In this document: positions 1 through 4,882 of the stretch, in pieces | Numbering within the stretch: position 1 is the first letter of the stretch | Layout: every line of letters begins with the position of its first letter | Source: an uncultured Bacteroidota bacterium | Lineage (GTDB): Bacteria > Bacteroidota > Bacteroidia > UKL13-3 | DNA: 64,000 nt | NCBI GenBank assembly: GCA_903850915.1 | Contig: CAINMV010000034.1 | Coordinates: forward strand, 37-64,036 | Direction: 5' to 3' | Notes under the pieces: model-generated | The model's input: the letters and a program-made list of their open reading frames with translations, nothing else | The model's database searches: none | Told to the model about the DNA's origin: nothing | Program-made: the position numbers and the translations under genes

Positions 1-61
1 GAAAAATTACGATATTTAGAGTTTTTTCGGTTGTTTTTTGGATTTTTTTGCAGAAAATGGC
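1..61. repeat. copy 1 of a ~61-bp non-coding direct repeat (copy 2 at 189-249, about 59/61 identical)
   Basis: The string gaaaaattacgatattt.gagttttttcggt.gttttttggatttttttgcagaaaatgg occurs twice, 188 bp apart. Copy 1 has in-frame stops, so it is not a conserved ORF. Confidence 0.6.
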
Positions 62-188
62 AGAAAATACACTTTAATCGCATATTAATTTAGGCCTCTT
101 TTTTTAGTTAAAACAGGTAAGCTGCTGAATTCTCAAAAATATAGTATTGGAACTTTCAATTTTCTTTCATTTTTGTTCACTTTTAGAT

Positions 189-249
189 GAAAAATTACGA
201 TATTTTGAGTTTTTTCGGTGGTTTTTTGGATTTTTTTGCAGAAAATGGA
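189..249. repeat. copy 2 of the ~61-bp direct repeat
   Basis: Direct alignment with 1-61 shows 2 mismatches. Confidence 0.6.
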
Positions 250-513
250 AGGAAATCTAATTTCAGCAGAGTAGAAATTTAATTCTCATTTGAGGAAGAA
301 AAAAGCATCATTTTTTCTTGATTTTGTATTAAAAATCGGTTAAAAGGCACTTTTGCAACTTATTTTAAAATAATACTTACACCTTTGTCGTTGTCTCCAA
401 AAGGGGCTTTTAAAACACGGGAAGTCGGTCAAGGTGTAGTAGAATATTTGTTATAATGTATTAAATCATCGACAAACATAATTTAGGTTAAGAAGTACAG
501 CTTCTAGAAATGT

Positions 514-557: not shown

Positions 558-1253
558 ATGAAAAGGTACTCAACATTGCTTATCAGCCTACTTTTTGGAG
601 GTATGATTGTTATTTGGGCTTGCAAGCACCAGATTCCTGATCCACCAATACCTAATTCTAATATACCAGGGCAGACCGGAAGAGCATGCGATAGCGACTC
701 CGTGTATTTTGCCAATGAAATTCTTCCACTGTTAAAGTCGACCTGTGCCACCAGTGGCTGCCACGACGCTTTTACCCAGAAAGAAGGTGTGCAGATTACA
801 AGTTATGCGACAATAATAGACTATGTGGTTCCAAGCAATGCCAATAATAGCAAGCTTTACGAGGTGATAACCAAAACTAACAAGCGAATGCCTCCTGCTC
901 CGATGGCTGCCTTAACGGTAGCGGAAATTGCTAAAATTAAAAAGTGGATTAGTCAGGGTGCTAAAGACAACGCTTGCGACCATTGTGACACCTTAGACTA
1001 CAAATTTAGCACAGCGGTAAAGCCCTTGCTCGACTTAAAATGCAAAGGTTGCCATAACCCAGCGAGCTTAGGCGGGGGCATCGACCTATCCACGTATGCC
1101 GCAACTAAAATATCGGCTTCCAACGGCAAGCTTTATGGTGCAGTGAACTGGTCGACTGGCTTCAAGGCCATGCCACAGAACTCAGCGAAGATGCCGTCGT
1201 GCGAGATTTTACAAATTAAAAAATGGATAGACAGCGGAGCACCAAACAACTAA
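558..1253 (+). CDS. lipoprotein with two PSCyt1-like c-type cytochrome modules; module 1 has CX4CH (CATSGCH), module 2 has CXXCH (CKGCH)
   Basis: Signal peptide with lipobox (IWAC). Two ~95-aa modules each end in a WIxxGAxxN motif. Haem-binding motifs are present. Paralog of the ORF at 1298-1993. Confidence 0.7.
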   Translation: MKRYSTLLISLLFGGMIVIWACKHQIPDPPIPNSNIPGQTGRACDSDSVYFANEILPLLKSTCATSGCHDAFTQKEGVQITSYATIIDYVVPSNANNSKLYEVITKTNKRMPPAPMAALTVAEIAKIKKWISQGAKDNACDHCDTLDYKFSTAVKPLLDLKCKGCHNPASLGGGIDLSTYAATKISASNGKLYGAVNWSTGFKAMPQNSAKMPSCEILQIKKWIDSGAPNN

Positions 1254-1297
1254 AAGAAACACATCTCGACTAAATGAATTTTAATTAACAATTTAGC

Positions 1298-1993
1298 ATG
1301 AAAAGAAATACAACGTGGCTTATTAGCATGCTTTTTGGAGGTATGATCATTTTATGGGCTTGCAAGCACGAGCTTCCTGAGCCTTTAGAGCCAGCATCGA
1401 ATACTCCCGGACTTACTGGTAGAGAATGTGACCCTGATTCCGTTTATTTTGGCAATGAGATTCTTCCAATCCTTAAATCGAATTGCGCTACAAGTGGATG
1501 TCACGATGCCTTTACCAAAGCAGAGGGTGTTCAAATCACAAGCTATAAAACCATAATGAAATATGTTGTACCAAGCAATGCCAATAATAGCTCGCTTTAC
1601 CGATCGATTAACAAAACACACGAGAGAATGCCACCACCGCCCATGGCCGCATTAACAGCAGCGCAAATAGCTCGTATTAAACTATGGATTAATCAAGGAG
1701 CAAAAAATAATGCTTGCGACCATTGTGACACCTTAGACTACAAATTTAGCACAGCTGTAAAGCCTCTTCTCGATTTAAAATGCAAGGGTTGTCATAGCCC
1801 AGGTAGCTTAGGCGGCGGAATAGATTTATCGACCTATGCGGCTGCAAAAATATCTGCATTAAACGGCAAGCTATTTGGTTCAGTAAATTGGTCATCAGGT
1901 TTCAAAGTGATGCCGCAGAACTCACCGAAGATGCCAGCTTGCGAGATTTTACAAATTAAAAAATGGGTAGACGACGGAGCTCCAAATAACTAA
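1298..1993 (+). CDS. paralogous two-module PSCyt1-like c-type cytochrome lipoprotein (CATSGCH + CKGCH)
   Basis: About 75% aa identity to 558-1253, with the same architecture and lipobox. Identical DNA stretches of 42 nt and 27 nt are shared with the upstream copy. Confidence 0.7.
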   Translation: MKRNTTWLISMLFGGMIILWACKHELPEPLEPASNTPGLTGRECDPDSVYFGNEILPILKSNCATSGCHDAFTKAEGVQITSYKTIMKYVVPSNANNSSLYRSINKTHERMPPPPMAALTAAQIARIKLWINQGAKNNACDHCDTLDYKFSTAVKPLLDLKCKGCHSPGSLGGGIDLSTYAAAKISALNGKLFGSVNWSSGFKVMPQNSPKMPACEILQIKKWVDDGAPNN

Positions 1994-1999
1994 AACACT

Positions 2000-2383
2000 A
2001 TGCCTTCTAAAAAATTATTTTTATTATCGAGCCTTGCTATAGCCTTGGCATTTTACGCCTCTTGTTATTACGACAAAGCGGATTTGTTGTATCCCAACTC
2101 CTTAGCCTCTGAATGCGATACAACTGTGGTTTCATATAGTGAGAAGGTAGTGCCGGTATTAAGTCAAAACTGTTACAGTTGTCATACAGCCGCATCTGCA
2201 GGCGGTGGTGTTGTACTAGGCACCTATGAAGCCGATAAGGCCTATGCTAATAATGGCAAGCTTCTTGGTGTATCGATATGGTCGCAAGGATTTTCGCCCA
2301 TGCCCAAAGGAGGAAGCCGTATGACTACCTGTCAAATCGCTAAAATTTCACGTTGGATTGCAGCAGGAGCGCCAAACAATTAA
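2000..2383 (+). CDS. single-module PSCyt1-like c-type cytochrome lipoprotein (CYSCH)
   Basis: Lipobox FYASC. One module is homologous to the C-terminal modules of the two upstream genes. It ends in WIAAGAPNN, the same terminus as the paralogs. Confidence 0.7.
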   Translation: MPSKKLFLLSSLAIALAFYASCYYDKADLLYPNSLASECDTTVVSYSEKVVPVLSQNCYSCHTAASAGGGVVLGTYEADKAYANNGKLLGVSIWSQGFSPMPKGGSRMTTCQIAKISRWIAAGAPNN

Positions 2384-2388
2384 AAAAA

Positions 2389-2853
2389 ATGATTATGACA
2401 CAAAAGAGAAAAACGACACTTATCATCCTATCCTTTCTATTGCTTTTGGCTGCTGGGGCTGTATATTATGGCTATCGTGAATATTACAGAACCAACACTT
2501 CATTGGAGCGAAGCACGCCCAATTTCACCATGGCTGCCGATGAGCTTATCAACTCTTTTTCATCGGATGAGAAAGGTGCAAATGCTAAATTTCTAGATAG
2601 AATAATACAGGTTAATGGCACCATTAAATCGGTTGACAAAGACGAAAAGGGGTATTACACCTTGGTGATTTCGAACCCAACGTCGATGTCGTCGGTGCGA
2701 TGCAGTATGGATAGTTTAGAGATGCAAAAAGCAAGCCTTGTTAAAACCGACCAAACCCTTGCTGTTAAGGGTATATGCACTGGCTACAATGCCGATGAAA
2801 TGGGCCTTGGCGCTGATGTAATATTAAACCGTTGTATAATCGTAGAAAATTAA
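2389..2853 (+). CDS. small exported OB-fold protein (tRNA_anti-like / BOF/YgiW-like family, tentative)
   Basis: In-frame ATG at 2389 lies just after the stop of the upstream gene (the ORF-track start at 2353 would overlap it). It has an N-terminal TM/signal segment. Family assignment is from memory only. Confidence 0.45.
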   Translation: MIMTQKRKTTLIILSFLLLLAAGAVYYGYREYYRTNTSLERSTPNFTMAADELINSFSSDEKGANAKFLDRIIQVNGTIKSVDKDEKGYYTLVISNPTSMSSVRCSMDSLEMQKASLVKTDQTLAVKGICTGYNADEMGLGADVILNRCIIVEN

Positions 2854-2890
2854 AAAATCAAATCCAATTTTATAATTATTTAAATCAATC

Positions 2891-3451
2891 ATGAACAAAT
2901 TCCTATTATTTTTATTCGCCATTTCTTTATCGAGCCTGCTTCACGCTCAGGACAAATTTTTCACTAAAACAGGCAAAGTATATTTTGATGCTACCGCACC
3001 AAAATCGCCTGAGAAAATAACAGCAGTAAACAAAAGCGCCACCTGTGTGCTCGACACCAAAACGGGCAACATGCAATTCTCCTTACTTATGAAAGGGTTT
3101 GAATTTGAACGTGCTTTAATGCAAGAACATTTCAACGAAAACTATGCCGAAAGCACCAAATTTCCGAAGTCGGAGTTTAAAGGTAACATTGCAGAAAATG
3201 CCAATGTAAATTACACCAAAGATGGCGTTTACGTGGTGAAAGTTAAAGGACAACTTACCTTACATGGCGAAACAAAAGAGGTAGAAACAAGTGGCACCGT
3301 GAGTGTTAAAGGAGGAAGCATTAGCCTTGCAGCTACCTTCACCATTAATTTAGAAGAGTACAAGGTAAATGTGCCAACGGTAGTAGGTGATAAGGTTTCT
3401 AAAACCGCTAAAATTACCGTTGACTGTGCCTTGGAACCCCTTAAAAAATAA
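2891..3451 (+). CDS. YceI-family periplasmic protein (polyisoprenoid/lipid-binding fold)
   Basis: Signal peptide present. Length and sequence pattern are typical of YceI-like proteins. Confidence 0.65.
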   Translation: MNKFLLFLFAISLSSLLHAQDKFFTKTGKVYFDATAPKSPEKITAVNKSATCVLDTKTGNMQFSLLMKGFEFERALMQEHFNENYAESTKFPKSEFKGNIAENANVNYTKDGVYVVKVKGQLTLHGETKEVETSGTVSVKGGSISLAATFTINLEEYKVNVPTVVGDKVSKTAKITVDCALEPLKK

Positions 3452-3487
3452 TTCGTTGGCATTTGCCAAACAAACAAAATTCATACC

Positions 3488-4387
3488 ATGCTTAAGAAAC
3501 ACCTGTTTCCATTAATCTTTCTTTTTGTTACTTTATTTAGCAACAAAATTATTGCACAACCCGCCGACGATTTGTTGAGTTTGGTAGGAGAAGACAAGCC
3601 CAAAAAAGAGTTTGTGAAGAATGCCTTTAAATCTACCAAAGTAATTAACGGTCATTCGATGGAGTTTTTGTCGGCAGGAACCATGGATTTCAGAATTTTG
3701 CACCGTTTTGGATTGCTTGATCAAGGCTATAAAAATTTCTTTGGTTTAGATCAAGCAAGCATGCGTATGGCCTTCGACTTCGGCTTACTTCCCAACCTAA
3801 TGGCGGGTATTGGCAGAAGCACCTACAAGAAAGAAGTGGATGGTTTTATAAAATATGCTCCCATACGACAAGCTACCGGCACAAAGGGTCTTCCATTAAC
3901 AATTGCGATTGTTAGTGGAATGACCTGGAACACGGCGCCATGGCCAGATCCAACGATTCATAACTATAACACGTCTCGCTTAGCCTATTACTTCCAAGGT
4001 ATATTTGGGAGGAAGTTTAGCGAATCGCTAAGTTTGCAGTTGTCGCCTACGTTATTGCATCGCAATATTGTGGCATTAAATACAACACCCAACGATGAAT
4101 ACTCCATTGGATTTGCAGGCCGGTATAAAGTTACCAAGCGCATGGCCATAACTTGGGATTACTTTTACAGAATCAATGGTCGTGAGAAAAATGTAACCTT
4201 TGACCCTATATCTATAGGCATTGACATTGAGACAGGAGGCCACGTATTTCAGCTTCACGTATCCAACTGCGTTGGCATGAATGAGCGCGCGTTTTTAGAT
4301 GAGACCACGAGCAATTGGCTCAAAGGAGGCATACGTTTTGGATTTAACTTATCACGAGTGTTTCAATTGAAAAGCCACAATGAATAG
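3488..4387 (+). CDS. secreted hypothetical protein, probable outer-membrane beta-barrel (DUF5777-like, tentative)
   Basis: Signal peptide present. Alternating amphipathic segments suggest a beta-barrel. DUF assignment is from memory. Confidence 0.45.
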   Translation: MLKKHLFPLIFLFVTLFSNKIIAQPADDLLSLVGEDKPKKEFVKNAFKSTKVINGHSMEFLSAGTMDFRILHRFGLLDQGYKNFFGLDQASMRMAFDFGLLPNLMAGIGRSTYKKEVDGFIKYAPIRQATGTKGLPLTIAIVSGMTWNTAPWPDPTIHNYNTSRLAYYFQGIFGRKFSESLSLQLSPTLLHRNIVALNTTPNDEYSIGFAGRYKVTKRMAITWDYFYRINGREKNVTFDPISIGIDIETGGHVFQLHVSNCVGMNERAFLDETTSNWLKGGIRFGFNLSRVFQLKSHNE

Positions 4388-4660: not shown

Positions 4661-4742
4661 GCCCATGTGGTGAAATTGGTAGACACGCTACTTTGAGGTG
4701 GTAGTTCCGAAAGGTGTAGGAGTTCGAGTCTCCTCGTGGGCA
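4661..4742 (+). tRNA. tRNA-Leu (anticodon GAG), long variable arm
   Basis: Hand-folded. Acceptor GCCCATG/CGTGGGC. Anticodon stem CTACT/GGTAG with loop TTGAGGT. T-arm is GAGTTCGAGTCTC. Length is 82 nt with no encoded CCA. Confidence 0.8.
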
Positions 4743-4882
4743 CTTTCTTTTCTTTTTTGATAAGTCTTGAGTCATTAGTATCGAGTCTATAGCATTCATA
4801 TTGTTTTTTAATTCCTACCTTTGCATTGCGTTTAATTTACTGTAGTGCTTTTTCTTTAATTAGCGCGAATTACCTGTTATCT

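Follow-up and report, generated by a model that had tools for sequence, protein, structure and literature searches.

A conserved Bacteroidota gene cluster combining c-type cytochrome lipoproteins, a YceI lipocalin and a predicted DUF5777 barrel is a candidate envelope redox module

Six open reading frames (ORFs) occupy positions 558–4387 of the + strand in a 64,000-nucleotide (nt) stretch of DNA from an uncultured Bacteroidota of the UKL13-3 lineage; we refer to the whole of this stretch as the window, and coordinates are positions within it unless a locus in a relative is named. They encode three putative cytochrome lipoproteins (CytA, CytB and CytC), a protein with a predicted oligonucleotide/oligosaccharide-binding (OB) fold, a YceI-family lipocalin and a member of the DUF5777 family, and are separated by gaps of 44, 6, 5, 37 and 36 nt. 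A preliminary description of this DNA had drawn attention to six co-directional genes with short gaps, and all of its coordinates and gap sizes match the ORF list. The features of the locus are as follows.

514–521, + strand: Bacteroidetes-type -7 promoter-like box, TATCTTTG (consensus match only).
558–1253, + strand: cytA, predicted dihaem c-type cytochrome lipoprotein, 231 amino acids (aa) (ORF list, Pfam, alignment).
1298–1993, + strand: cytB, tandem paralogue of cytA, 231 aa (ORF list, Pfam).
2000–2383, + strand: cytC, predicted monohaem c-type cytochrome lipoprotein, 127 aa (homology to the CytA C-domain).
2389–2853, + strand: OB-fold protein, PF12869, 154 aa (Pfam; ATG at 2389 read directly).
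2891–3451, + strand: YceI-family periplasmic lipocalin, 186 aa (Pfam PF04264).
3488–4387, + strand: predicted DUF5777 outer-membrane beta-barrel, 299 aa (Pfam PF19089, AlphaFold2 (AF2) model).
4661–4743, + strand: tRNA-Leu(GAG), downstream of the barrel gene.

The cluster is a conserved, self-contained envelope module of the Bacteroidota, with all five core components present. Relatives of the DUF5777 protein, scanned in one genome per species, occur in at least 598 species genomes, and the family comprises ~2,200 clusters at 50% identity. Synteny was surveyed at the best 80 loci of these at least 598 (44–69% identity), the other five families being mapped by jackhmmer; the 80 loci represent the nearer part of the DUF5777 family, whose distant members lie outside the survey, and counts were made over the 68 loci with at least 3 kb of upstream flank. 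A PSCyt1-like cytochrome was present at 65 of the 68, the OB protein at 61, YceI at 59 and all three together at 55, while 50 loci carried two or more cytochrome genes. In every such locus the module genes were co-directional, most frequently in the order dihaem cytochrome, monohaem cytochrome, OB protein, YceI and barrel. When the search was reversed and started from cytochrome homologues, YceI and DUF5777 genes adjoined in three cases out of three (Aquirufa rosea, Flavihumibacter profundi and a 5.3-Mb metagenome-assembled genome). The preliminary description took a lack of joint conservation in relatives as grounds for refuting its reading, and these results do not refute it. That description had looked to the Flavobacteriia; the module does occur in Flavobacteriales, but the nearest relatives are of the Chitinophagales type.

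Carriers include Chitinophagaceae, Saprospiraceae, Lewinellaceae, Flavobacteriales, Cyclobacteriaceae, Adhaeribacter (Cytophagales) and one Kapaibacterium. The flanking genes vary between loci, which indicates that the module is self-contained. Among the loci surveyed, a tandem dihaem duplicate was seen in the window's own species alone (contigs L001–L004); the core is thus a five-gene module, to which the window adds a lineage-specific second dihaem gene. Each of the domain families is also found in other contexts, as would be expected if the six genes were mere neighbours with unrelated functions. We give that explanation almost no credence: order and co-orientation are kept across several Bacteroidota orders and Kapaibacterium while the flanks change, and the intergenic gaps are a mere 5–44 nt.

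Scans for sigma-70-type promoters and intrinsic terminators gave counts no higher than those of shuffled controls and are uninformative for Bacteroidota, so we used the -7 motif of the phylum instead. The box TATCTTTG lies 37 nt 5' of the cytA start codon and was the sole + strand match between positions 1 and 4000 in a scan with TANNTTTG; the intergenic gaps of the cluster contained no + strand match to the -7 consensus. Similarly, the intrinsic terminator scan, with its counts at or below those of shuffled controls, placed no + strand terminator-like site within the cluster. A single upstream -7 box and the lack of an internal + strand terminator-like site fit a single operon and, taking these together with the short gaps, we predict that the six genes form one transcription unit. 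A riboswitch or other known RNA in the 557-nt leader was considered and rejected, with no Rfam match there at E values up to 1; the tRNA was the sole match in the Rfam scan. The G+C content of the cluster (41.5%) is similar to that of the whole window (39.5%), and thus gives no hint of a foreign origin.

CytA and CytB belong to the PSCyt1 family (PF07635), scoring 39 and 38.2 bits, respectively, against a gathering cut-off of 22 bits, and both also match the Pfam families Cytochrome_CBB3 and Cytochrom_C. CytC scores 15.5 bits, below the cut-off, and owes its place in the family not to its Pfam score but to its clear homology with the C-terminal half of CytA (tblastn E 9e-26, 48% identity). The earlier notion of three tandem PSCyt1-type cytochromes therefore stands on Pfam evidence for the first two genes, and for the third, which falls short in Pfam, on its homology with cytA. 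The lipobox cysteine of CytA and CytB is Cys22. In CytA the first haem site is C63-x4-C68-H69 (CATSGCH, nt 744–764) with Met111, and the second is C162-x2-C165-H166 (CKGCH, nt 1041–1055) with Met205; CytB has the same lipobox and haem motifs (nt 1484–1504 and 1781–1795). In an alignment of the family, these Cys, His and Met residues are kept in at least 51 of 53 members. CytA and CytB are 79% identical in amino acid sequence and 77% identical in nucleotide sequence, and 98 of the 161 nucleotide differences between their genes fall at third codon positions. Neither copy is broken. The excess of third-position changes and the intact state of both copies indicate an old duplication under purifying selection.

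CytC has a lipobox cysteine followed by a conserved YYD motif, and a single CXXCH motif (CYSCH, nt 2171–2185). Among its 62 orthologues at the same operon position, 42 have CXXCH, 19 have CX4CH and one has CX5CH, all in one alignment column, and the CX4CH consensus is C-A-x-S/P-G-C-H. Because the column is shared, CX4CH is a homologous substitute for CXXCH, as opposed to two cysteines paired by accident. The literature accepts CX4CH as a site of haem c attachment in other cytochromes. The C-domains of CytA and CytB, and CytC itself, have CXXCH with a conserved Met-Pro, while the N-domains have the non-canonical CX4CH in the homologous position. From these conserved haem-binding residues, CytA, CytB and CytC are predicted to be haem c lipoproteins. 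How the cytochrome c maturation machinery of these bacteria copes with the longer motif is a question prompted by the alternation of CX4CH with CXXCH.

An AF2 model of CytA (predicted local distance difference test score (pLDDT) 77.7) contains two small all-alpha domains. The best fold match was the cytochrome domain of hydrazine synthase alpha, and it was weak (probability 0.99, E 0.09), as were further matches to FoxE and OmcF. The hydrazine synthase alpha C-terminal cytochrome domain (PDB 5C2V) and the PSCyt1 domains of planctomycete proteins belong to the same family of small all-alpha haem c domains and gave the best, if weak, matches in both sequence and fold, but here the domain occurs in stand-alone lipoproteins of one or two domains, and the first domain of the cluster protein has CX4CH where those proteins have CXXCH. 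Sequence searches of the PDB with CytA, YceI and the DUF5777 protein gave either no match or nothing closer than E ~0.02–0.05.

The fourth product belongs to the tRNA_anti-like family PF12869 (69.5 bits against a cut-off of 23.5, E 3e-19); its gene has a possible alternative start at 2395. The preliminary description had called it BOF/YgiW-like, a label that we abandon, since Pfam at E values up to 1 returned PF12869 and a weak tRNA_anti-codon match, and no BOF. Nor do all six products carry signal peptides, as had been proposed: the N-terminus of the OB protein is a hydrophobic segment with no obvious cleavage site or lipobox and, judged from its sequence, resembles an uncleaved membrane anchor. 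Histidine is missing from the protein altogether, and two cysteines are near-invariant. A profile of the family built from 36 orthologues had a sole match, PDB 3F1Z (E 6e-4), a ‘putative nucleic acid-binding lipoprotein’ of the same OB-fold family; in contrast to that structural-genomics entry, for which no function is known, the protein in the window has a predicted membrane anchor and conserved cysteines. A role as a CcmE-like haem chaperone was considered for the anchored OB protein and ruled out, the protein being without any histidine.

Membership of the fifth product in the YceI family (PF04264) is likewise clear (55.7 bits against a cut-off of 23.7, E 1e-14). Its signal peptide is standard, ending LHA/Q, and the protein weakly matches the solved YceI structure 5IXG. 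YceI proteins bind isoprenoid lipids. With the barrel described below, the Pfam scan thus found all of the cytochrome, YceI, OB-fold and DUF5777 domains that had been anticipated.

The sixth product is a member of DUF5777 (PF19089), with a score of 308 bits against a cut-off of 23.1 (E 5e-92) and a signal peptide ending IIA/Q. Its AF2 model has 12 strands (pLDDT 74.7; predicted template modelling score 0.69), one face of which is hydrophobic and variable while the other is polar and conserved at 0.9–1.0, and there is a conserved N-terminal extension. The alternation of strand faces argues for a true membrane barrel whose lumen is under strong constraint, and the protein is accordingly modelled as a membrane beta-barrel. 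Its best PDB folds are FapF, NanC, KdgM and OmpG, outer-membrane proteins of 12–14 strands. The predicted barrel resembles NanC/KdgM and FapF in size and topology (template modelling score ~0.45–0.5 relative to the query), but sequence identity with them is ~10%, and the unusually invariant polar lumen and conserved N-terminal extension set DUF5777 apart. With this assignment, the predicted parts of the module extend through all layers of the envelope, from the anchored OB protein and the lipoprotein cytochromes to soluble YceI and the outer-membrane barrel.

The barrel also contains an HVSN motif in which H257 and S259 are invariant and N260 is near-invariant, all facing the lumen by strand periodicity. 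Its resemblance to the HDSN of OMPLA raised the possibility of a hydrolase, but hhalign against Escherichia coli PldA gave a probability of 0.2%, and the 50 fold matches listed included channels and neither OMPLA nor PagL. We reject DUF5777 as a homologue of OMPLA or PagL, the PagL sequence itself not having been compared; a convergent active site is not excluded.

A cytochrome gene beside the gene for an outer-membrane beta-barrel is also the arrangement found in MtrCAB, in PioAB/MtoAB and in fused Cyc2. The cluster could specify a small conduit of the porin-cytochrome type that moves electrons between the cell and extracellular partners such as iron or humic quinones. The periplasmic cytochrome lipoproteins would exchange electrons across the outer membrane, either through the DUF5777 barrel or at it, with haem proteins of the surface or with substrates outside the cell, and YceI would be an accessory quinone carrier. 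Several features of the relatives are in keeping with this. Five Saprospiraceae loci (L027, L031, L036, L052 and L061) consist of a minimal pair of dihaem cytochrome and barrel without YceI or OB protein, and in L036 the pair is joined by a choice-of-anchor V protein. Such Reeler-like proteins occur in 9 of the 80 loci, at times between the OB and YceI genes (positions include L030 6539–7393, L036 8947–9762 and L045 6504–7346); in all eight that were inspected there is an N-terminal CX2/4CH motif, suggestive of a haem-binding surface domain, and several have a type IX secretion system sorting domain. One protein, P0317, has a Reeler-type domain fused to the N-terminus of DUF5777, and SprB-repeat lipoproteins with one cytochrome domain adjoin the barrel in relatives. 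The weak likeness of the CytA fold to those of FoxE, an iron oxidase, and OmcF of Geobacter points the same way.

The extra surface-anchored CXXCH proteins of some relatives are a further resemblance to MtrCAB-type conduits. Nevertheless, each cluster protein has one or two haems, as against about ten in those systems, and the predicted 12-strand barrel, of NanC/KdgM size, is too narrow to house a cytochrome; the MtrB barrel has 26 strands and that of Cyc2 ~16. Pfam and NCBIfam scans of the six proteins found no Mtr-, Pio- or Cyc2-type family, the window has no surface haem protein and most loci lack such accessories, aerobic heterotrophs predominate among the carriers, and the fold matches cited above are weak (E of 0.09 or more). 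As modelled, the cluster lacks the defining feature of a porin-cytochrome conduit, a multihaem cytochrome held in a barrel of 16 strands or more. We regard such a conduit as unlikely, although a serious competitor.

Other genes that accompany the module in relatives point to its regulation. In 23 of the 80 loci a set comprising a ~960-aa sensor kinase (Reg_prop propellers, Y_Y_Y and a LytS-type His_kinase) followed by a LytTR regulator lies directly upstream or downstream of the module (for example L053 1294–5517 and L062 8945–13190), and in 17 of the 23 the kinase is preceded by a second YceI; we suggest that this YceI paralogue with the kinase/LytTR pair may be a lipocalin-assisted sensor, and a literature search found no study linking YceI with LytTR. 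The operon is headed by an AraC regulator and a His-rich 126-aa protein, p126, at L086, at L087 and among the nearest of the Chitinophagaceae relatives (p126 at L008 3044–3424, L014 5054–5437, L086 6508–6894 and L087 6487–6870, among others). In Chitinophagaceae relatives p126 is the first gene of the operon, and an AraC regulator often precedes it. The motifs of p126 are HLxGNTE, HYFxH, MHYGGDDGT, LPCHN and QPPR, and it has no Pfam or NCBIfam match. The 64-kb window contains no histidine kinase, LytTR or AraC regulator of the kinds seen in relatives, no His-rich 126-aa protein and no second YceI. At one locus only (Aquirufa rosea L085, 4507–5489), two tandem Rieske lipoproteins with twin-arginine translocation signals lie directly upstream of genes for DUF5777, YceI and a trihaem cytochrome. 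The window contains none of the accessory genes of the relatives. The recurring theme among the accessory genes, as predicted from their domains, is one of envelope and cell-surface redox proteins under ligand-responsive regulation.

Alternatively, the module might serve to take up or traffic a cofactor or metal that is in short supply, with haem, a metal ion and a quinone or vitamin-K-like lipid as candidate cargoes. In this scheme a specific outer-membrane channel would be formed by the barrel, YceI and the OB protein would carry the cargo within the periplasm, and the cytochromes would oxidize or reduce it, as in the reduction of a metal. The nearly invariant charged lumen suits a specific channel, and NanC and KdgM, among the best fold matches, are specific channels; the head of the operon in the closest relatives, with its His-rich protein and AraC regulator, the ligand-sensing two-component system with a YceI of its own, and the binding of isoprenoid lipids by YceI proteins would fit too. 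Against this, at the loci examined the module was accompanied by no conserved inner-membrane transporter, ABC transporters included, nor by a conserved TonB-dependent receptor, the OB protein offers two conserved cysteines and no histidine, and Pfam and NCBIfam scans matched no known metal- or haem-uptake family. We therefore think a role in uptake improbable.

The immediate surroundings of the operon are distinct from the module. Metagenome contigs L001–L004, which are of the same species, extend the view to the left of the window and show a divergent AIRS-domain gene ~1.1 kb upstream of the operon; the downstream neighbours are mnmA, a gyrB/parE-like gene and a parC-like gene. The six genes are thus bounded by unrelated housekeeping genes. 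The ~1.1-kb divergent intergenic region 5' of the operon contains an AT-rich tandem array of ~188-bp units, which covers window positions 1–336 and runs on leftward (L004 6100–6848); within it, positions 1–60 recur at 189–248 with two mismatches. Copy number varies within the species: L004 has ~4 units and both L002 and L003 have one unit less, while L001 has an assembly gap. The array has no Rfam match, and in the closest relatives its position is taken by the AraC regulator and the His-rich 126-aa gene.

The preliminary description had started from the association of YceI with cytochrome b561 in Proteobacteria, and this premise holds: lcoA (cytochrome b561) and bcnA (YceI), described in Burkholderia, are syntenic in the beta and gamma classes of the Proteobacteria and form fusions in the alpha class (PMC9113575). 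Mutants in lcoA-bcnA show raised membrane lipid peroxidation, a Neisseria YceI homologue binds ubiquinone-8, and the authors proposed that the cytochrome recycles a lipocalin-held quinone that quenches lipid peroxyl radicals (PMC9113575). LcoA-BcnA is the only pairing of YceI with a cytochrome that has been studied by experiment. In the cluster described here, as in LcoA-BcnA/BcnB of Burkholderia cenocepacia and in yceJ-yceI of E. coli, a secreted or periplasmic YceI lipocalin is genetically locked to envelope haem proteins of electron transfer; the linkage is in both cases conserved over large taxonomic distances, and stress-inducible regulation is plausibly shared. The partner differs, being a set of predicted covalent-haem c-type lipoproteins rather than a membrane-integral dihaem b561, and the cluster adds a predicted outer-membrane barrel and an anchored OB-fold protein, both of which the proteobacterial system lacks. 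No b561-type domain was found in the six products or in the genes within 10 kb on either side. The cluster is thus not a member of the LcoA-BcnA system, though it may work alike.

No enzyme domain is present in the cluster, and its chemistry is for that reason probably the transfer of electrons to or from a bound small molecule. By analogy, the reading that we tentatively favour, while recognizing that it is possible rather than probable, is that the module is an envelope redox system of YceI and cytochromes, a functional analogue of LcoA-BcnA in which c-type cytochromes replace b561. YceI would bind an oxidized lipid or an isoprenoid quinone as its hydrophobic, redox-relevant ligand, and the lipid-anchored c-type cytochromes would move single electrons between the respiratory cytochrome c pool and this ligand. 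Links to the outer and the inner membrane would be provided by the barrel and the anchored OB protein, respectively. In relatives, expression would apparently be inducible, via the YceI-associated histidine kinase/LytTR pair or the AraC regulator.

Several considerations weigh against this LcoA-BcnA-like system. The cluster contains neither cytochrome b561 nor another inner-membrane quinol-oxidizing partner, and so has no electron entry point. His/Met-ligated c haems are usually of too high a potential to reduce menaquinone, and would have to act on radicals or oxidize quinol instead. The invariant charged lumen of the barrel suggests passage of a hydrophilic solute or a protein segment, not a path for lipid. 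The minimal pairs of cytochrome and barrel at some Saprospiraceae loci, without YceI or OB protein, imply that YceI may not be the core of the mechanism. Finally, the roles given to the OB protein and the barrel are guesses, and the function as a whole, be it quinone-linked trans-envelope electron transfer or a part in oxidative stress, is one that we infer from the genes. As a whole, then, the interpretation offered in the preliminary description is partly supported.

A variant of the same idea would take account of the surface proteins found in relatives. The module might form a hitherto unrecognized type of trans-envelope electron pathway that dispenses with multihaem cytochromes. Its mobile carriers would be the small lipid-anchored c-type cytochromes and a quinone bound to YceI. 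Electrons from the respiratory chain would reach the outer membrane by this relay or, by way of the DUF5777 barrel, CXXCH proteins at the cell surface (choice-of-anchor V/Reeler and SprB-repeat cytochromes), for outer-membrane lipid repair or extracellular redox chemistry. We hold this form to be decidedly improbable, a little more so than a role in uptake.

What appears to be new is a putative YceI-cytochrome envelope redox module with another class of cytochrome and added outer-membrane parts, the component domain families being already known. The module had been described as uncharacterized in Bacteroidota and the literature search agrees, having found no study of the cluster and no paper on DUF5777. 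Whatever the role of the module, the interchange of CX4CH and CXXCH in a small class-I-type domain offers a natural test of haem-lyase specificity in Bacteroidota. The favoured reading is itself open to direct test, since the module has cultured carriers (Adhaeribacter terreus, Flavihumibacter profundi, Aquirufa rosea and Lacibacter cauensis). If the analogy with LcoA-BcnA is true, it would give a first function to DUF5777, to PF12869 in the context of this cluster and to the PSCyt1 lipoproteins. Genetic coupling of a lipocalin with a cytochrome would in that case represent a general way of handling lipid radicals or quinones in the envelope, for which separate phyla came to use different haem proteins.

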